Part shown: piece after piece, positions 11,184 to 63,871 of the stretch
Position numbering within the stretch: position 1 is the first letter of the stretch
Layout: each line of letters begins with the position of its first letter
Origin: a virus
Lineage: Duplodnaviria > Caudoviricetes
IMG/VR virus record: IMGVR_UViG_3300043447_000100
Location: 119,667 to 183,666 of that record
DNA: 64,000 nt
Direction: 5' to 3' (one strand)
Program-made: the position numbers and the translations under genes
The notes under the pieces: model-generated
Databases searched by the model: none
The model's input: only the letters and a program-made list of their open reading frames with translations
Told to the model about the DNA's origin: nothing

Positions 11184-11776
11184 CACAATTTCGTAGCGAC
11201 ATTGATATTGACTGCGCTGATCGTGAGCAAGTAATGTCACGTATAAACGCAACACAGGCTTCAGTTAGAGAAAACTGGAAAGTTCGTCGTCATGCTTCAG
11301 GCGCATACATCACGCCTATTCCTTATGACCCAGTACATGATGTTGCCGCCCTTGATTACAAGACAGCAGAAGAGCGCGGCTATGTGAAACTTGACTTGTT
11401 GAACGTACACGTTTATGGTCACGTTAGGGATGAAGCACACTTAGTTGAATTGATGCGAGAGCCTAACTGGAAGATGTTGCGTGATCCTGATATTGTCAAA
11501 CGATTAGTTCAGATTCATAGCCAGTATGACATTATGAGACAGATGCCTGAACCTATCAACAGCATACCTAGATTAGCAATGTTCTTGGCTGTGATTCGCC
11601 CTAGTAAGCGACATTTGATTGGTAAGACTTGGGCAGAAGTTGCCGAGACGATTTGGGATAAGACTGAAGATGGGTATGTGTTTAAGAAAAGTCACGCTAT
11701 TGCGTATGCTACCCTGACTGTTGTAAATATGAATCTGTATGAAGAAAATCCTACGGCATTCGTTTTACCAGAGTAA
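11180..11776 (+). CDS. Miniature DnaE (Pol III alpha)-like protein
   Basis: SDIDID, HASG, KLDLL, LAVIRP, YVFKKSHAIAY family-C motifs in 198 aa. Confidence 0.75.
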   Translation: MTQFRSDIDIDCADREQVMSRINATQASVRENWKVRRHASGAYITPIPYDPVHDVAALDYKTAEERGYVKLDLLNVHVYGHVRDEAHLVELMREPNWKMLRDPDIVKRLVQIHSQYDIMRQMPEPINSIPRLAMFLAVIRPSKRHLIGKTWAEVAETIWDKTEDGYVFKKSHAIAYATLTVVNMNLYEENPTAFVLPE

Positions 11777-12128
11777 TTGATCTTCGCTTGATTCGCTTCT
11801 TGGTTAGATCATTCATACTGGTAGCGGGTCCGTGAATAATCTCTAAGCCTTTGTTGGTAAACGTTCGCAAGAATGGCTTGAATGGCATCCAATCTTCACG
11901 TAAGAAGATATGAATTGGTATTTGATGATTGCTACCCCACCACCATTCGTCGGCCAATTCAAGGAATAATTCCTTCATTTCTTTATGTACTATGCTACCA
12001 TAGTCATAGAATGTAGTAATACTGTCATCCCTGTTTTGAACAATGCCCACATATTCATTGCCACCGTAGCTGCATACGGTTATGAATGGGTGCTCTTGGG
12101 ACAGTTTTTCAAAGAATTCTCTGCTCAT
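11751..12128 (-). CDS. Hypothetical protein
   Basis: 125-aa ORF fills the gap; late-type CTAAATA upstream on minus strand. Confidence 0.7.
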   Translation of the reverse strand: MSREFFEKLSQEHPFITVCSYGGNEYVGIVQNRDDSITTFYDYGSIVHKEMKELFLELADEWWWGSNHQIPIHIFLREDWMPFKPFLRTFTNKGLEIIHGPATSMNDLTKKRIKRRSITLVKRMP

Positions 12129-44156: not shown

Positions 44157-44231
44157 GGTGATATGACGTAGATGGATGCGTAGCGGTTTCATAAGCCGAC
44201 GAGAGTGGCTCGGTACCACTTATCACCACCA
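44157..44231 (+). tRNA. tRNA-CAT (Met or Ile2), atypical T-loop
   Basis: Loop TTCATAA; GGTGATA/TATCACC acceptor; T-loop CTCGGTA. Confidence 0.7.
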
Positions 44232-48789: not shown

Positions 48790-48862
48790 TGAAGCGGCCG
48801 GGCGAGTATCGAACTCTCATTTCTGCTTGGAAGCAGTGTTTTTCCCCTTAAACTACGGCCGC
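48790..48862 (-). pseudogene. Degenerate tRNA-Gly(TCC)
   Basis: GCGGCCG/CGGCCGC acceptor, CTGC-TTCCAA-GCAG (6-nt loop), GTTCGA T-loop, ends TTCA. Confidence 0.65.
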
Positions 48863-54778: not shown

Positions 54779-54994
54779 ATGTATAAAGTAAAATGGAAAG
54801 ACAAATACGGTATCGATAGAGTTCATAATTGTATGTCACTCGCTGATGCCCTAGAATATAACAAGACAGTAAACAGACCAGGCACCTTAATCATAGGTGA
54901 AGGTATCGAGATAGTTGGCTCCATGGGAGTTGACTCAATCAAAGACGGACTATGCCCAGACGGTGTAGAATATAGTTGGAGAAAAAGACGATGA
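54779..54994 (+). CDS. Hypothetical protein
   Basis: Coupled ORF ending CPDGVEYSWRKRR. Confidence 0.6.
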   Translation: MYKVKWKDKYGIDRVHNCMSLADALEYNKTVNRPGTLIIGEGIEIVGSMGVDSIKDGLCPDGVEYSWRKRR

Positions 54995-55536
54995 GAACAT
55001 GGATCACCTCTGACCTACACTTCGGTCACACAAACATTATGAAGTTTTGCCCTCATACTCGTTCACGTTTCAAAGACGTTGACGACATGAATGAAACAAT
55101 GATTCGTGAATGGAATCAAATCGTCGAACCAGGCGATCTAGTTTACATTCTAGGCGACTTTGCGTTTCTACCTAGTGACAAGGCAGTAAAGATTGCTAAC
55201 AGATTGAACGGCGACAAGATTCTTGTTGAGGGTAATCACGACCGTAAGTTGTTGAATGATCCTGTGTTTCGCCGTTGCTTCAAAGAAGTACACCAGTATT
55301 TGAGCATCACATACAACAAGCACCGTATCTGTATGTTTCACTATCCTATCGCGGAGTGGGACCAAATGCACAGAGGCGCTCTACACTTTCACGGACACTT
55401 ACACGGCGGCAAGAGCGGCCTAGAACAGTACCGCGCACGTGATATGGCATTCGATGCTACTGGCTTCATTGTGGTAGAAATGGAACGTGCTATCAACGAT
55501 GCCATGACAGGCAAGATCAAAGGCCACCACGTTTGA
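54991..55536 (+). CDS. Calcineurin-like metallophosphoesterase
   Basis: SDLHFGH, LGD, GNHD, HYP, HGHLH. Confidence 0.9.
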   Translation: MRTWITSDLHFGHTNIMKFCPHTRSRFKDVDDMNETMIREWNQIVEPGDLVYILGDFAFLPSDKAVKIANRLNGDKILVEGNHDRKLLNDPVFRRCFKEVHQYLSITYNKHRICMFHYPIAEWDQMHRGALHFHGHLHGGKSGLEQYRARDMAFDATGFIVVEMERAINDAMTGKIKGHHV

Positions 55537-55551
55537 GATAAATACTCTATT

Positions 55552-56703
55552 ATGAAGATTTCTGACTTACTCAACGAAGACAAAAAAGGCCCTAAGATCA
55601 TCAAGCCCAAGAAATCCAGCGGCGGCGTTCGCTACAATAGCGAAGTCGGCCTTATGGCCGGCTTTATGCGACTACCGCTAGAAGAATTTGATCCTATGAA
55701 TCCTGAGCGCACAATGCCTGAACGATTGTTAGGCGATGCTCAAAGTGTTTACAAGGACATCAAAAATCTATTAGCGCCTGTCTATGATGAGGCAATGTTT
55801 GCTAAGTGGTACAACCTAGGCGAAGTCTATGGTTACGCTATGAATGAGAAGCTAACAAATACAAGTCGTCGTGTTACAGCATTCGGCTGGGCCGGAGGAG
55901 CAAATCAAAGCGAAAGCGGCCCTAGTGATGTTGAGTTTATCGGCAGTGACGTGGCAGGCGTATCAGTCAAAGCAGAAGGCGGCATTACGCTGGCCAACCT
56001 AACTCCTAAGACCTTAGGCCTAGAACCGCCTCCTAAAGAGGACGTATTTGCCGCGTATGCTCAGACAGAGTATCTTCAAATGAAGCGCAACGTATTCACA
56101 GAAGTAATGAATATCGCTAAGAGACAACCTGGCGTTCCTGTTGCCGCACTTAGTGATGCGTATTCAGTAACGTTCAACCCTGATACAAATACATTCATTT
56201 GTAAAGGCAAGAAAACAGTTGATTACACTGCTGATCAAATCATGAAAGAGTTGAATCGTAATGCTACATGGCAACGCGGCTTCGGCGACTGGTTCCAAGC
56301 AAACTTCGCTGACTACAAGCACTTTGCTGACCCTCTATTCAAGAAGGTAGCAGTAGCGTTTGAAAAGATCATCGAAGATAACCTCAAAGACAGTAAGAAG
56401 TTAGCCGGCATCTTACAGTTCGCAAAGATACCTTACTTCTATGCGACACCTAAGAGCCTGTACTATGTACCTAGTATTGATGAAGTTGAAGATTTAGAAA
56501 TCAAGGGCATCAAATATGCTGACCCTGACGGCACTTCGCAGTTGTTCAAGGCAATCATCGGCCGCAAAGACAGCATTGAAGGCGCTAATGCCGAGCTTGA
56601 TATCTATGTTAGATATGCTAACGGTATGTTTGAGACAAACCCGACAGTCAGAGTTCAGAGCCTCAAGAACCCACAGTTCATCGCCTGGGAAAAGTTAGTG
56701 TAA
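55552..56703 (+). CDS. Hypothetical late protein, possible PD-(D/E)XK-like fold
   Basis: GATAAATA upstream; SDVEF...GVSVK. Confidence 0.5.
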   Translation: MKISDLLNEDKKGPKIIKPKKSSGGVRYNSEVGLMAGFMRLPLEEFDPMNPERTMPERLLGDAQSVYKDIKNLLAPVYDEAMFAKWYNLGEVYGYAMNEKLTNTSRRVTAFGWAGGANQSESGPSDVEFIGSDVAGVSVKAEGGITLANLTPKTLGLEPPPKEDVFAAYAQTEYLQMKRNVFTEVMNIAKRQPGVPVAALSDAYSVTFNPDTNTFICKGKKTVDYTADQIMKELNRNATWQRGFGDWFQANFADYKHFADPLFKKVAVAFEKIIEDNLKDSKKLAGILQFAKIPYFYATPKSLYYVPSIDEVEDLEIKGIKYADPDGTSQLFKAIIGRKDSIEGANAELDIYVRYANGMFETNPTVRVQSLKNPQFIAWEKLV

Positions 56704-56746
56704 TACTAAAGTAGTACTTGACAATAAATCAGCCTCCTGATACAAT
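56700..56746 (+). promoter_or_regulatory. Early promoter with GTAATACT palindrome
   Basis: GTAATACTAAAGTAGTAC abutting TTGACA-17-TACAAT. Confidence 0.75.
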
Positions 56747-56777
56747 ATCTACTTAGATAGTTGATAAGGAGATTGAA

Positions 56778-57284
56778 ATGACAGATATCGTTGAAAAGGC
56801 CAGAGTATTTGCTACGGCGGCCCACGCGGCTGTCTCTCAACTCCGCAAGTACACCTTCGAACCCTACATCGTTCACCCCGCAGAAGTTGTTAGCATCGTT
56901 CGCTCGGTGCCACACACTCCTGAAATGTTAGCGGCTGCTTGGTTACACGACACAGTAGAAGACACCGGCGTTAGTATCGAGACAATTCGTGCTGAATTCG
57001 GCGACAAGGTAGCAGAGTTAGTCGGATGGTTAACGGACGTTAGTCGCCCTGAACAAGGCAACCGTGCCGTTCGTAAGGCAATCGACCGTGCTCACACAGC
57101 ACAAGCGCCTGCCGAAGCTCAGACAGTTAAGTTAGCCGACTTAATCTCTAACACAAGATCAATCATGGCACACGATGAAAAGTTTGCCAAGACCTACTTA
57201 GCAGAGAAGCGGGCTTTATTAGAAGTAATGACTAAGGGTGATGCTACATTGATGGCAATCGCTCGTAAGAACATCGAGATATAG
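56778..57284 (+). CDS. HD-domain small alarmone hydrolase-like ((p)ppGpp hydrolase/Mesh1 type)
   Basis: AH..Q.RK..EPYIVHP, WLHDTVEDT, VKLADLISN. Confidence 0.85.
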   Translation: MTDIVEKARVFATAAHAAVSQLRKYTFEPYIVHPAEVVSIVRSVPHTPEMLAAAWLHDTVEDTGVSIETIRAEFGDKVAELVGWLTDVSRPEQGNRAVRKAIDRAHTAQAPAEAQTVKLADLISNTRSIMAHDEKFAKTYLAEKRALLEVMTKGDATLMAIARKNIEI

Positions 57285-57293
57285 GAGTCTATT

Positions 57294-57482
57294 ATGGATA
57301 CTCGTGTTGAAATTCGACCAGCAACTAAGGAATATCCAAAATATCAAGTTCTGGTTTTTGAAATGAAATTTGATACCATTCGGCAATCGTCTGGATGGGT
57401 GTTGAAGATGTGTAAAGAATACCGTCTACGAGCCGATGCTGAGACATTCGCTACTCGTTACGGCTGGACTAAGGAAATTTAA
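57294..57482 (+). CDS. Hypothetical protein
   Basis: AGGAG RBS; 62 aa. Confidence 0.55.
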   Translation: MDTRVEIRPATKEYPKYQVLVFEMKFDTIRQSSGWVLKMCKEYRLRADAETFATRYGWTKEI

Positions 57483-57483
57483 A

Positions 57484-58506
57484 ATGCGTAAACTAGCAAC
57501 TATTAGACGAATTGATGCTATCGACCCTATCCCGGGCGCTGATGCTATTGAAGTAGCAACAGTCGGCGGCTGGAAAGTAGTCGCTAAACGGGGTGAGTAC
57601 AGGCCTGGTGACATGGCTGTTTACTGTGAAGTGGACTCATGGATTCCATCTAAGCTGGCTCCGTTCTTGACTAAGCCTGGTCATTTCCCCAAGACATTCG
57701 AAGGAATCGAAGGTGAACGACTAAAGACTATCAAGCTACGTGGTCAACTATCACAAGGCTTGCTACTCAACCTGGATCATGTTATCCCTGAAACACACTC
57801 ATTCGGTGAAGATTCAGATGTGACAGAGTATCTTGGTATCGTCAAGTGGGAAAAGGCAATGCCTGCTCAACTAGCGGGCACTGCTAAGGGTAACTTCCCT
57901 TCACTTATCCCTAAGACTGACCAAGAACGTGTTCAAAACTTGAAGAAGGAAATCGAGGCTTGCCAAGGACTGACTTTTGAAGTCACTGAAAAGTACGAAG
58001 GTTCTTCAATGACTGTTTACCGTTCAGTCGGTGATTCAGGTGAGATGGAATTTGGCGTATGCTCACGTAATCTAAATTTGAAAGAAGTTGAGGGCAACAC
58101 TTTCTGGGATGTAGCACGTGCCGAAGACATTGAAGCTAAGATGATTGCCGTGGACGAGTTCTGGTCATTTGCTATTCAAGGTGAATTGATTGGGCCGGGA
58201 ATTCAAGGCAACATCTACGGATTGACTAAACCTCAATTCTGTGTGTTTGATGTGTACGACATTCAGACAGGTAAGTACCTACCGCCGAAAGCTCGTAGAG
58301 AGTTGATTGAGCGTATGGGCTTGCGCCATGTTGCTGTGTTGAACGAAGAATATGTACTAACACAAACAGTCGAAGAAATCATTGCTACTGCTGAAGGGCA
58401 ATCAACAATGGCCGCGACTGAACGTGAAGGCATCGTATTCAAGCAAGTAGATGGCGGTATTACTTTCAAGGCTATTTCTAACCGGTACCTATTAAACGAG
58501 AAGTAA
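57484..58506 (+). CDS. ATP-dependent RNA ligase, DRB0094/Rnl5-like
   Basis: N-terminal OB (I.PI.GADAIE, LRGQLSQGL), TEKYEGSS, QGELIGPGIQGN, EGIVFK, FKAIS. Confidence 0.9.
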   Translation: MRKLATIRRIDAIDPIPGADAIEVATVGGWKVVAKRGEYRPGDMAVYCEVDSWIPSKLAPFLTKPGHFPKTFEGIEGERLKTIKLRGQLSQGLLLNLDHVIPETHSFGEDSDVTEYLGIVKWEKAMPAQLAGTAKGNFPSLIPKTDQERVQNLKKEIEACQGLTFEVTEKYEGSSMTVYRSVGDSGEMEFGVCSRNLNLKEVEGNTFWDVARAEDIEAKMIAVDEFWSFAIQGELIGPGIQGNIYGLTKPQFCVFDVYDIQTGKYLPPKARRELIERMGLRHVAVLNEEYVLTQTVEEIIATAEGQSTMAATEREGIVFKQVDGGITFKAISNRYLLNEK

Positions 58507-58507
58507 A

Positions 58508-58849
58508 ATGAGTAAGCGTAAAATCCTAGATGTAGAAGTAAACGACTACATCGACTTCTATGATGTACTTGATGGCAAGACTCCTGACGGTGTTGTTGAA
58601 GCCATGAAGTACTATCAAGAACACTACAAGGGTCGTGATATTTACTTTGATATTCAGTCATACGGATATGATGGCGGGAAAGAATTGAAACTCAGGGAAC
58701 GCCGTCCAGAGACTGATAAAGAGTTTGAGAAGCGTACTCAGGCAGAAAAGAAAGAACGTGCCGTCAAGCGAGAAGCTAAGGCAGTAAAAGAAGCCAGAGA
58801 ACGTGCTGAGTATGAACGATTGAAAAAGAAGTTCGGAGAACTATCGTGA
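58508..58849 (+). CDS. Hypothetical protein with basic coiled coil
   Basis: ETDKE..EYERLKKKFG. Confidence 0.65.
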   Translation: MSKRKILDVEVNDYIDFYDVLDGKTPDGVVEAMKYYQEHYKGRDIYFDIQSYGYDGGKELKLRERRPETDKEFEKRTQAEKKERAVKREAKAVKEARERAEYERLKKKFGELS

Positions 58850-59022
58850 GTAAACAAGTAGTCTATAAAGGTTCTGTCTTAGCGAACGGCTCACAAGCCC
58901 TTGAACTTTGGCAGAACTGGCAGAAAGCAAAAGCGGATCGTAATCAACATCAAAAGAAGTTGGACGATCATATGAAACAACTAGATAAGAATCTAGCAGA
59001 CCTTTTAGAGAGATACAAATGA
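58846..59022 (+). CDS. Small hypothetical protein (58 aa, not in ORF track)
   Basis: GTGA overlap, GGAG RBS; MSKQVVYKGSVLANGS... Confidence 0.55.
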   Translation: MSKQVVYKGSVLANGSQALELWQNWQKAKADRNQHQKKLDDHMKQLDKNLADLLERYK

Positions 59023-59069
59023 TTTAGAACTTTTTCTTATGGTAGCACTTACTTACCACTAAATAAGAT

Positions 59070-59723
59070 ATGAAACAAACATTAGCATATCTATACAAGT
59101 GGACTGAATTATCAACAAGTAAGTGGTACATTGGTGTCCGCTTCGCAAAAGGCTGACATCCGAATGATGGTTACATCTGTTCTAGTAGATTAGTAAAACC
59201 TATGATTACTGAGAATAGTGAAAACTGGAAAAGAGAAGTTCTATGTATTGGGTTGCCGGACGATATGATTTCTTTGGAAGAAAAATATCTCTCGTTACTT
59301 GACGCAAAAAATGACCCGATGAGTTACAATCAACATAACGGCGACGGTGACTTTAGATTCAAGGGATATGGTGGAAATGACTCGCCCTTGAAGGGAAGAG
59401 TCGGTAACAGAAAAGGCAAAAAGAATACACCAGAACATAATGCCAAGAACTCAGCCGCTCGTAAGGGTAAGCCTGCGCCTAACAAAGGCAAGCCAATGAG
59501 TGATGCTCAAAGAGAAAAATTGAGAATAGCAAATACTGGGGTCCCTAAAACAAAAGAAGCAAATAAGAAAAGATCAGAAGCACTAAAGGGTAGAACTAAA
59601 ACAGATGAACATAAAGCAAATGTGTCGGCCGCTCTAACTGGTAAACAACGCCCGAAAGTAGTATGTAGATTATCAGACAGAAAAGAAATGTGTTTAGCTC
59701 ACTTCAACAGGTATGTAAAATGA
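59070..59723 (+). pseudogene. GIY-YIG/NUMOD3 homing endonuclease with in-frame TGA at codon 29
   Basis: AYLYKW..KWYIGVR..KG*HPNDGYICSS continues in frame into ORF 59202; NUMOD3-like basic repeats; TGA 59154-59156. Confidence 0.75.
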
Positions 59724-60634
59724 TAACAAAAGATTTGATAAAGAAATATGTGACTGATAATCCTAAGTTAGTATCAATGAAGAACTCGGCAAAGTATCCT
59801 GAACTATATGTTTTGAAATACAAAAAGTCAGTATTCTATGATAACACCTGGGATGAATTCTTGGAACATTGTAGAGGAACGGTTGTAGATAAAGATTTCA
59901 ATCTAATATCTTATCCGTTCAAAAAAATATATAACTACAATGTAGAAGCTCGTGCTCCTGTGTTTGACGACACTGATGAAGTTTTGGCTTTCCGCAAAGT
60001 CAATGGGTTTATGTGTTCGGCAACTTGGCACAACGGTGATGTGTTGGTTAGTACTACTGGTACTACTGACTCGGAGTTTGTTGGCTATGCTAAGGAAATG
60101 ATGACCAAGCATATGCCTTGGGCCGACTGGCAAATGGCATTCAGTTCAGCAGACATGATCGGCTTGACTGTTATGTTTGAATGTGTACACCCAATGGACC
60201 CACACATCGTTCCTGAAAAGGAAGGTATGTATGTTCTGGGCTACCGTGAAAATCGGTGGGACTCTAAAGTAGGTCACTCTGAAACTGTGTTGGACATCAT
60301 GAGCGATACATTCAAGTGCTATGTGCCAGAGTGCTACCGCGTAACAGTGGGAGAACTAAAGCGGATGGCAAAGGATGTCAAGCACGAAGGTTTTGTATTC
60401 TATCACGCAGATGGTCGCTCGGCTAAAATCAAGTCGCCATACTATCTAACAAGTAAGTGGGTTGCCCGCAATCCTCGTACTGACAAGTTAGTGGACTTGA
60501 AGCGTGATATCAAACAAAACTTGGACGAAGAGTACTACCCACTGGTAGATGCTATTCGTGCTAACATTGTTGAATACACAGCTATGGACGAGCAAGCTCG
60601 ACTAGCTTGGGTGCGTAACTTTGTGAGCAAGTAA
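59720..60634 (+). CDS. T4 Rnl1-like RNA ligase
   Basis: CRG..PFKKIYNY, KVNG motif I, STTGT, FE, EGFV, KIKSPYY. Confidence 0.82.
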   Translation: MITKDLIKKYVTDNPKLVSMKNSAKYPELYVLKYKKSVFYDNTWDEFLEHCRGTVVDKDFNLISYPFKKIYNYNVEARAPVFDDTDEVLAFRKVNGFMCSATWHNGDVLVSTTGTTDSEFVGYAKEMMTKHMPWADWQMAFSSADMIGLTVMFECVHPMDPHIVPEKEGMYVLGYRENRWDSKVGHSETVLDIMSDTFKCYVPECYRVTVGELKRMAKDVKHEGFVFYHADGRSAKIKSPYYLTSKWVARNPRTDKLVDLKRDIKQNLDEEYYPLVDAIRANIVEYTAMDEQARLAWVRNFVSK

Positions 60635-61326: not shown

Positions 61327-61553
61327 ACGAACGAATTAAACTACTTGCTGAACAGGCTACTAAACACTATCCGGCAACAGAATCATCTGGTGAGTTTTCA
61401 ACCTTTGATAAAGAAAAGTTCGCCGAGTTGATTGTGATGGAATGTTCGCAATTCTTAGTAGACAAGTTTGATTTTTGTGGCAACGAAATTCTTGCCGCTG
61501 AAGAACTAGCTAAGAATTTTGGTGTTAAATGGACTTTTAGGATTGAAGAATGA
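61323..61553 (+). CDS. Hypothetical protein
   Basis: MNERIKLLAEQA..EKFAELIV.EC; ATGA overlaps. Confidence 0.65.
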   Translation: MNERIKLLAEQATKHYPATESSGEFSTFDKEKFAELIVMECSQFLVDKFDFCGNEILAAEELAKNFGVKWTFRIEE

Positions 61554-61891
61554 ATCACGAAGTAGAACGATACGAAGGCGAGTTACGAACACTACGAGAG
61601 AAGGTAGCGGTCTATGAAGACCTCTTACACTCACTTCAAATGTATGCCGCTGTTACTCTTGACCAAGCCGCTATTGCTCACGCTCTTAGTATTATCTGTG
61701 ACTGGAGTTATGCTCATCGTGCGGGTAACGGTGAGCCAACAGAAGAAGAACAAGAGCGTATGGTACGCCGACAGTTTGATAGACTAAAGAACGGCGAGTA
61801 CAGAGATAGCGTGTGGAACAGTGGTGTTGATACACAATTCAAACAAGCAGGCAAGTTATCCAAAAATGTTCCCAAGAAAAAAAAGCGGTGA
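61550..61891 (+). CDS. Hypothetical protein
   Basis: WSYAHRAGNGE motif. Confidence 0.6.
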   Translation: MNHEVERYEGELRTLREKVAVYEDLLHSLQMYAAVTLDQAAIAHALSIICDWSYAHRAGNGEPTEEEQERMVRRQFDRLKNGEYRDSVWNSGVDTQFKQAGKLSKNVPKKKKR

Positions 61892-62020: not shown

Positions 62021-62179
62021 ATGACTTGTAGAGGTTACGATCCTAAAGCAGTAAAAGTTGGTAAGCCAGTTAAAGCACTAGCCGCTACTTACCTTAATAA
62101 AGATCAGCGCAGAGCCTTCATTAAAAGCTATGTAAAGATTCTTGAAAGTGAATTACGCACTTCCGGCGGCAAGAAGTAA
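62021..62179 (+). CDS. Small basic protein (52 aa, not in ORF track)
   Basis: MTCRGYDPKAVKVGKPVK..GGKK between two tRNAs. Confidence 0.55.
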   Translation: MTCRGYDPKAVKVGKPVKALAATYLNKDQRRAFIKSYVKILESELRTSGGKK

Positions 62180-62311: not shown

Positions 62312-62598
62312 TTGACACAAAATACACTTCCTGATACAATAGAGCCTTAGACAGTTGAGAAACAAACTGGCGTTAGTATAATGGATAATACAGTGAGCTT
62401 CTACCTCACGAATGTGGGTTCGATTCCTGCACGCCGGACCAGTTCTTTGATTTGTTGTTAAAATACAACACAAAAGTAGTTGACAATAAATCAAAGACCT
62501 GATACAATATGTATCTAGTCAGTTGAAAAGGTGATCGAGCCTAACAACTAAAATTCTTTAACAAAGTGCTTGACAATAAATCTAAGACCTGCTACAAT
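62312..62598 (+). promoter_or_regulatory. Three sigma70 promoters for second tRNA cluster
   Basis: TTGACA-17-TACAAT at 62312, 62480, 62570; palindrome 62453-62470. Confidence 0.85.
62367..62441 (+). tRNA. tRNA-Arg(TCT)
   Basis: GTGAG-CTTCTAC-CTCAC; ACCA. Confidence 0.88.
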
Positions 62599-62671
62599 AG
62601 AGGCTTAGTTGATTAAGTCAACACTAGTTCTTTAACAAGTTAAATTTCACATGGTCCCGTTAAGTTCGGGA

Positions 62672-63044
62672 TACCATGTGTGAGTACATTATCATCAATA
62701 GGATGTAGAGTCTATGGGTCATGCCTGTAGGAGTTCTCCTAGCGATGATAAGGTTACCGAATCCGTTAGGGTTCTATTGAGGTTACGCTGACCGGCGGGT
62801 CGGGCCTCCTTAGAGCTATGAAGCAGATAAACGGATAACAGAGGGACACAAGGTGTACTGCCCGTGAAACGGCTACATTCTCCCCGAGTTATATGTCAGT
62901 TGTCAGAAAAGCGACGGTGTTATTCGGCAGTAATGTTTGTGAGCGAAAAGACATTCGCAAGTCCCAGACAAGATACATGGCATCTATAAGCCCATGTTGA
63001 GTTGCAGTCATCACGAACCCTAAGAAATGTATTCACACATGGTA
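62672..63044 (+). ncRNA. Large (~370 nt) unknown structured RNA
   Basis: 19-bp closing helix 62672-90/63026-44, several internal helices, no ORF, behind strong promoters. Confidence 0.7.
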
Positions 63045-63050
63045 AATATT

Positions 63051-63135
63051 GCGACTGTGGTGTAATCGGTAGCCACAGGAGACTTAAAATCTCCCGCGTA
63101 ATTGCGTGTCGGTTCGAGTCCGACCAGTCGCACCA
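63051..63135 (+). tRNA. tRNA-Leu(TAA)
   Basis: GGAGA-CTTAAAA-TCTCC; variable arm; ACCA. Confidence 0.92.
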
Positions 63136-63448: not shown

Positions 63449-63871
63449 ATGCCAGGATTATATAAAGAAAGAACTTGTCCAAATTGTGGCAAGATCAAAC
63501 GAATGCACCCAGATCAGTTATGCTGTAGTCAAACTTGTGCTAGTGAATTGGCACGAAAAGACAAAATAAATCGTTGGCTATTAGGTGAAGAAATAAAAAC
63601 ATCTAGGGGCAAAACGAGTACTGCTAGATGGATTCGTGATTACATGCTAGAACAGTCAAATTTCAAATGTTCTAAATGTAACTGGGGTGAGACAAATTTA
63701 TTTACTGGAAAAATCCCTCTAGAATTAGAACACAAAGATGGCAATTTTATGAATAATAAAATTGATAATCTAGAAGTTTTATGTCCTAACTGTCACGCTT
63801 TAACTGCTACTTATAAAGGAGCCAATAAGAGTGCCGGCAGACCTAGGGCGAAATATTATAGAGGAACATGA
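63449..63871 (+). CDS. HNH endonuclease within tRNA cluster
   Basis: CPNC..CSQTC, CSKC, LELEHKDGN..NN..NLEVLCPNCH. Confidence 0.9.
   Translation: MPGLYKERTCPNCGKIKRMHPDQLCCSQTCASELARKDKINRWLLGEEIKTSRGKTSTARWIRDYMLEQSNFKCSKCNWGETNLFTGKIPLELEHKDGNFMNNKIDNLEVLCPNCHALTATYKGANKSAGRPRAKYYRGT

Follow-up and report, generated by a model that had tools for sequence, protein, structure and literature searches.

What is the long stretch without a substantial open reading frame that lies between two promoter-like sites and a leucine tRNA in a phage tRNA cluster? It occupies positions 62648-63044 of the window, by which we mean the whole 64-kb stretch of DNA analysed here, the final 64 kb of a 183,666-bp IMG/VR virus contig whose completeness is ~52% (CheckV), i.e. 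only about half a genome. The window contains 28 tRNA genes arranged as two clusters. An earlier sequence-only reading had proposed a large structured RNA that was neither RNase P RNA nor tmRNA, and had suggested a cmscan search of Rfam and an alignment of homologues as checks. Both were carried out, and the proposal was borne out by covariation over 12 aligned sequences and by the lack of any match in Rfam 15: positions 62648-63044 are a genuine gene, on the + strand, for a conserved and structured non-coding RNA. The carrier may be a large phage of a freshwater betaproteobacterium, a host suggested by the beta-proteobacterial-type permuted tmRNAs of its relatives. The parts of the locus are as follows.

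62480..62508 (+): upstream promoter-like site, TTGACA, 17 nt, TACAAT, with TG; 11/12 matches
62570..62598 (+): proximal promoter-like site, 49 nt before the 5' hairpin; 11/12 matches
62608..62622 (+): small leader hairpin GTTGA/TCAAC, read from the sequence
62627..62638 (+): conserved leader motif GTTCTTTAACAA, core TTCTTTAA
62648..62680 (+): P0, the 5' hairpin; outer 8 bp 62648-55/62673-80, inner stem 62656-59/62667-70
62672..62690 (+): 5' strand of P1, the 19-bp closing helix; 95% paired, compensatory changes in 10/19 pairs
62691..62749 (+): optional hairpin A, in which PA2 covaries
62751..62753 (+): 5' strand of the probable P1b, AGG (GGG in others); proposed partner 63019-63021
62757..62767 (+): 5' strands of P2a and P2b, CCGAAT and CCGTT; long-range helix, 100% paired
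62770..62817 (+): P3, three-segment hairpin with a GGCG tetraloop; 98-100% paired, 10 compensatory pairs
62818..62825 (+): conserved junction ATGAAGCA, from the alignment
62826..62904 (+): P4 with variable module B; apical loop GTGAAAC
62905..62912 (+): conserved junction AGAAAAGC, from the alignment
62913..62927 (+): 3' strands of P2b and P2a (GACGG, 4-nt bulge, ATTCGG), from covariation
62928..62934 (+): conserved junction CAGTAAT, from the alignment
62935..62942 (+): 5' strand of P5, an 8-bp helix; 96% paired, compensatory changes in 6/8 pairs
62943-46 with 62955-58 (+): S1, possible pseudoknot stem, doubtful
62950..62963 (+): S2 hairpin, 3-6 bp with an 8-nt loop; 3/3 pairs covary
62967..63003 (+): P6 (62967-69/63001-03) around AAGATA, P7 and TTGA; P6 and P7 100% paired
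62976-80 with 62992-96 (+): P7 hairpin; AU/UA versus UA/AU in 4 versus 4 sequences
63004..63010 (+): conserved junction GCAGTCA, from the alignment
63011..63018 (+): 3' strand of P5, from covariation
63019..63021 (+): 3' strand of the probable P1b, CCT (CCC in others)
63026..63044 (+): 3' strand of P1; its last 8 nt repeat the 5' strand of P0
63051..63135 (+): tRNA-Leu(UAA), 6 nt after P1

What had been noticed first in this copy holds up well. The two arms of the closing helix (62672-62690 and 63026-63044) are 95% complementary, and the 411-nt stretch has a predicted minimum free energy of -138.9 kcal/mol (z -5.26), with none of 100 shuffles as good. The claim that the stretch holds no ORF agrees with the ORFs found in it, all of which are at most 41 aa. 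Both of the strong promoters that had been called match TTGACA-17-TACAAT at 11 of 12 positions and carry the TG extension (62480-62508 and 62570-62598), and the RNA does end just before a leucine tRNA, tRNA-Leu(UAA), which begins at 63051.

A blastn search of the RNA against 50,697 phage records returned nothing similar. The first homologues were found via the 113-aa protein encoded just upstream (61550-61891), which led to three contigs bearing the RNA (L019, L020 and L021); conserved words of the first alignment then recovered L022-L026, L028, L032, L034 and L049. Besides the window copy, 12 loci on contigs from uncultured phages and metagenomes have homologues, of which nine are full or near-full length; this makes 13 carrier loci in total, 10 of which are full or near-full length. 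The last viral pattern scan returned one new homologue, four known loci and 15 chance matches, and a scan of bacterial and archaeal genomes gave three chance matches. The neighbouring RNA ligase, used as a lead, gave relatives that lack the RNA, and relatives searched with a covariance model of the 3' domain yielded no distant homologues. Two close relatives, L013 (84% identity in the neighbouring protein) and G001 (a complete genome of 168.9 kb), do not have the RNA, which is therefore dispensable or replaceable. No protein gene was found consistently adjacent to it among the loci, so no partner protein is indicated.

A comparative structure was derived from compensatory changes and scored on a 12-sequence alignment (A4). 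It contains 100 pairs, with 94.8% of cells paired versus 35-40% when the partners were slid by 1-3 columns, and compensatory (double) changes occur in 45 pairs versus 4-11 in the slid controls. None of 500 shuffles reached the observed pairing, cell count or covariation score. The homologue alignment thus backs a conserved fold, and the strand is fixed as + by the conservation of many G-U pairs, which would be A-C on the opposite strand.

The 19-bp P1 encloses two multi-helix domains with near-invariant junctions and two optional hairpin modules. In the 5' domain the long-range P2a/P2b (62757-67 with 62913-27) closes P3, the most conserved sequence block of the RNA, and the variable arm P4/B; P2 reads GU/AC versus AC/GU in 5 versus 5 sequences, and a C-G pair has become U-A in L020. 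In the 3' domain, the 8-bp P5 (62935-42 with 63011-18) encloses S2, P6 and P7. P5 covaries again in L032 and L049, the two homologues in which S2 has 5-6 bp. The 3-bp P1b is probable: it is paired in all nine sequences that reach it and is nearly invariant, so it gives no covariation signal either way. The pseudoknot stem S1 (GCGA/UCGC) is doubtful: 8 sequences show no change in it, and in L032 and L049 it shrinks to 2 bp. The almost invariant junctions are AGGGTTAC, ATGAAGCA, AGAAAAGC, CAGTAAT, AAGATA and GCAGTCA, and such constancy is expected of a defined tertiary structure; the ~50 invariant nucleotides of the RNA are concentrated in junctions. ATGA (62818-21) and TCAT (63008-11) are a candidate tertiary pair.

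Against this fold, the internal complements listed in the sequence-only reading fared less well. All are literally present in the window, but three are not conserved and the fourth is only the base of the optional hairpin. The pairing TTAGGGTTC/GAACCCTAA is not kept in homologues, where GAAC (63015-18) sits in the covarying P5 instead, and a pattern scan for TTAGGGTTC...GAACCCTAA found chance matches only. Through deletion, the 3' partner of ATCCGTT/AACGGAT is missing from four homologues of full or near-full length (L019, L026, L025 and L049), and the change that compensates GU-to-AC at 62765-66 lies at 62914-15 (within GACGG, 62913-17), not in module B; this pairing, which the minimum-free-energy fold contains, was dropped for the covarying P2b. 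TCAATAG/CTATTGA is also not kept. TTATCATC/GATGATAA does form the base of hairpin A, but that hairpin is missing from most homologues. Judged by the alignment, most of the suggested pseudoknots are coincidences of one sequence, and the headline observation is far above chance. A separate 11-nt identity between the RNA region and tRNA-Glu is at about chance level.

The length of the RNA varies from about 280 to 400 nt because the two hairpin modules are optional. Hairpin A is missing in L019, L026, L022, L034, L028, L032, L049, L024 and L021; the four homologues that bear it agree throughout its inner ~30 nt (29 nt confirmed by exact search). Module B is ~70 nt in the window, and in other homologues it is a stem of a few pairs or a short hairpin. 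Each module comes and goes independently of the other, even between phages that share 99.6% identity just upstream, and both are therefore peripheral. Such losses, of about 60 and 69 nt between near-identical phages, together with the shortness of all ORFs, mark the RNA as non-coding. Minimal natural forms of ~280-300 nt occur in L019, L026 and L049. Between L019 (3092-3341) and the window (62440-62689) identity is 99.6% up to the 5' strand of P1 and falls to 87-89% inside the RNA, a drop that suggests a recombination boundary inside the RNA gene.

The sequence-only reading had also noted a local 5' hairpin competing with the closing helix. This hairpin, P0, is present, with 62648-55 paired to 62673-80 and an inner CCCG/CGGG stem, and it shows compensatory changes in the homologues. 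Its 5' strand (62648-55) and the final 8 nt of the P1 3' strand are identical in sequence, and both pair with 62673-80, so that the outer 8 bp of P0 and the outer part of P1 are mutually exclusive. The three segments change together in homologues (CACAUGG, CGUAUAG, CAUAUAG and UGUAUAG, each with its complement). P0 has 99% of its cells paired and compensatory changes in 4/8 pairs, while its inner stem differs in sequence and is paired in every homologue. When either state was forced, the predicted energies differed by -9 to +3 kcal/mol. Because the competing 5' hairpin is also conserved by covariation, P0/P1 is, on the covariation and the predicted energies, a conserved bistable or sequential-folding element. 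The exchange may serve as a folding aid, or it may gate whether the tRNA leader is single-stranded. A role for the P0 loop as an anticodon-loop mimic was rejected, as the loop is not conserved.

The promoters and tRNAs lie on the strand of the RNA in every locus. In 10 of the 13 loci an extended -10 promoter match precedes the RNA by 48-64 nt, and two other loci have TGnTATACT. Further downstream, the core TTCTTTAA of the leader motif occurs 19-25 nt before P0 in 12/13 loci, with similar copies at 62438-48 and 62545-64 of the window; it is possibly a processing site. Variable hairpins are present at the position of the leader hairpin in the upstream stretches of homologues. At the other end, a tRNA begins ~5-11 nt downstream in eight of the nine loci that reach the RNA 3' end (Leu-UAA in five, Glu-UUC in three). 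In L049, ~100 nt separate the RNA from the next tRNA, so the flush linkage is not obligatory.

The promoter cassette TTGACA..TGnTACAAT is present in three copies (62312-62350, 62479-62518 and 62569-62608); after each copy come a small hairpin and a motif of the TTCTTTAA type. It looks like a modular 'promoter plus leader' unit that is reused along the tRNA cluster and in relatives.

The explanation that we favor, at a probability of roughly 55%, is that this previously uncatalogued structured non-coding RNA (~280-400 nt) is a stable cassette of the phage tRNA operon that is released by RNase P. It would be transcribed from the + strand, from its own strong sigma-70-type promoter or promoters, together with the downstream tRNAs; no terminator lies between the RNA and the tRNAs that follow. 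As the nascent RNA emerges, P0 would hold the 5' strand of P1 until the later 3' strand takes over and the 19-bp P1 forms; P0 and P1 are both conserved and close in predicted energy. In the final fold, which the covariation shows, P1 closes the two multi-helix domains, P2-P3-P4 and P5-S2-P6-P7. RNase P cuts at the 5' ends of tRNAs and acts on phage RNAs other than tRNAs as well (PMC11143913), and from this established tRNA processing we infer that, by cutting where the next tRNA begins, it would leave the RNA 3' end a few bases past P1. The 5' end would likely be trimmed at the AU-rich conserved leader motif. By analogy with T4 rnaC/rnaD, ROOL and GOLLD, the mature RNA would be stable and act in trans, perhaps by binding a partner in translation or tRNA metabolism during infection.

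Non-tRNA RNAs are familiar from phage tRNA operons, where rnaC/rnaD of T4 (the species 1 and 2 stable RNAs, ~120-140 nt) and the stable RNAs of the T5 tRNA region are co-transcribed with tRNAs and freed by the tRNA-processing machinery. Like the T4 pair, the RNA described here is an ORF-free, self-closed fold other than a tRNA that lies within a phage tRNA cluster, shares the strand of the tRNAs and directly adjoins one of them. It differs from rnaC/rnaD in its length of 280-400 nt and its two multi-junction domains, and it has no sequence similarity to the T4/T5 RNAs (blastn, 50,697 phage records). We know of no description of a conserved P0/P1-type bistable closure in the T4/T5 stable RNAs.

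A second, much less probable reading is that the element acts in cis as a leader of the downstream tRNA. The large fold would be a sensor that tunes tRNA maturation, with the P0 state leaving the tRNA leader single-stranded and the P1 state locking it in a 19-bp helix only 6 nt from the RNase P site. A promoter always precedes the RNA, the tRNA is close in 8/9 loci, and the two mutually exclusive helices are conserved and near iso-energetic, all of which agrees with such a device. A mechanism of this kind has a precedent, since RNase P cleavage is controlled by a hairpin that sequesters the tRNA leader in the E. coli case that one report describes (PMC8925977). However, neither a terminator nor another expression platform is present, the downstream tRNA varies by locus (Leu or Glu) and is ~100 nt distant in L049, and relatives express the same tRNAs without the RNA (L013). 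Moreover, a processing timer would hardly call for 300 nt of invariant junctions. In riboswitch P1 switching and in leader-assisted 16S rRNA folding, a strand of the closing helix pairs alternatively with a nearby competitor. The P1 strand here also has a nearby alternative partner in P0, but the competitor is upstream of the fold, and there is no terminator, ribosome-binding site or known ligand.

It is also conceivable, though improbable, that the RNA opens a functional class of its own, as a bistable RNA with a sensing or catalytic role, and is more than another stable RNA. The P0/P1 exchange would then couple the folding of a ~300-nt tertiary core to tRNA 5' maturation, or to another RNA-processing or anti-defence activity.

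Slightly less probable again is a self-assembling, RNA-only particle of the ROOL or GOLLD kind, in which junctions and loops would join copies into a multimer that encloses or displays molecules. ROOL and GOLLD are large, elaborately folded phage or prophage RNAs without known function or partner, often adjoining tRNA islands, and the genomic setting here, a phage tRNA island with no partner gene, is the same (10.1101/2024.12.08.627333). The loops and junctions of our RNA are also highly conserved in sequence. Its size argues otherwise, as it is about half of ROOL (~580 nt) or less and far below GOLLD (over 800 nt), and it is known only from one lineage of uncultured phages. Inspection found no conserved self-complementary loop, and neither covariance model (GOLLD, RF01998; ROOL, RF03087) matches, in keeping with a lack of homology to either.

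A new ribozyme, self-cleaving or acting on pre-tRNA, is unlikely. Here the junctions would form an active site whose activity P0/P1 gates. The compact multi-junction architecture, with its ~50 invariant nucleotides mostly in junctions, and a location in a tRNA operon beside RNA-repair genes would suit a catalyst, but the RNA matches no Rfam ribozyme family, lacks the RNase P motifs CR-I and CR-V, and has no feature that marks a cleavage site.

The idea of a highly diverged representative of a known class (RNase P RNA, tmRNA, group I intron or Y RNA) is largely refuted. At gathering thresholds, Rfam 15 gave only tRNAs in the window, and with E-values of up to 10 cmscan gave nothing relevant for 62400-63100 or for the minimal homologue L028, by which measure the family is previously uncatalogued. 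In its length, its P1 joining the 5' and 3' ends, its two domains and its link to tRNA genes the RNA resembles bacterial RNase P RNA type A (RF00010). Unlike that RNA, it matches none of the RNase P RNA covariance models (bacterial A/B and archaeal) at E up to 10, and neither of the universal P4 core motifs, CR-I (GAGGAAAGUCC) and CR-V (ACAGAANNNGGCUUA), was found within 2 mismatches. An RNase P-like P4 built from TTAGGGTTC/GAACCCTAA was considered and rejected, because this long-range pairing is not conserved.

tmRNA was considered because the tRNA clusters of the same phage lineage hold permuted tmRNAs of equal size (RF01850, RF04321; ~370 nt), whose ends are likewise joined by a long helix. 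ARAGORN found no tmRNA, standard or permuted, in the window or in the whole, incomplete contig. The RNA has no CCACCA, T-arm/CCA acceptor piece, GGGG 5' acceptor strand or tag frame, and its internal ORFs do not have the ..LAA tail of the relatives' tag peptides. L022 and L028 each carry both a permuted tmRNA and the RNA; these features and this co-occurrence ruled tmRNA out. The circularly permuted tmRNAs of the relatives (L013 17260-17514, L005 15637-16006, L022 5451-5889 and L028 5037-5459) are two-piece, of beta-proteobacterial type, sit in tRNA clusters, and encode the tags ANASNDEVFALAA or ANDEQFALAA; true tmRNAs of relatives bear little resemblance to the RNA.

A group I intron has no Rfam match here either; the flanks are a promoter leader upstream and an intact tRNA downstream, and the RNA interrupts no gene. 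Y RNA and YrlA gave no Rfam match, and no TROVE (Ro60) protein (PF05731) is encoded in the 183.7-kb contig, about half a genome.

A DNA-level element, such as a MITE with terminal inverted repeats, or a chance palindrome is refuted despite the flanking 19-bp inverted repeats and the 8-nt direct repeat at the edges, since there are no dispersed copies (one in the contig, one per locus), the slot, strand and promoter are the same in all loci, the internal helices covary and strand-specific G-U pairs are conserved.

Large, intricate RNAs with strong covariation are rare and have repeatedly proved to be ribozymes, riboswitches or unusual assemblies. The well-supported new family joins the unexplained structured RNAs of phage tRNA islands (T4 rnaC/rnaD, ROOL and GOLLD). 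With ~45 compensatory pairs, near-invariant junctions, removable modules and a minimal form of ~280-300 nt it is a tractable object for study, and its mutually exclusive closure helices are a testable feature that could show how such RNAs fold or leave tRNA precursors.

In L013, which lacks the RNA, the equivalent slot after the promoter (11521-11800 and 11799-12115) holds a different strongly folded RNA (z -5.06) that includes a ~21-bp hairpin and is followed by unusual CCA-ending tRNA-like genes. This arrangement suggests cassette replacement.

Upstream of the tRNA cluster, at 54976-60634 of the window, lies a neighbourhood of RNA-repair genes for a phosphoesterase (metallophosphatase), an HD-domain protein and two RNA ligases, one with a PHA02142 OB domain and the other T4 Rnl1-like, along with a NUMOD3 homing-endonuclease-like ORF. 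Elsewhere in the window, a tRNA at 44157-44228 (+) was found by Rfam and missed by ARAGORN, and ARAGORN reported an odd tRNA with a two-base anticodon at 48793-48862 (-). Between tRNA-Asn and tRNA-Thr there is a basic ORF of 52 aa (62021-62179) without a Pfam match, and genes of 51-52 residues are called at its position in L019, L020 and L021. Directly after tRNA-Leu(UAG) lies a gene for a 140-aa HNH-type endonuclease (63449-63871); homologues are equally placed in L019 and L026, and further HNH genes are dispersed across the tRNA clusters of relatives.
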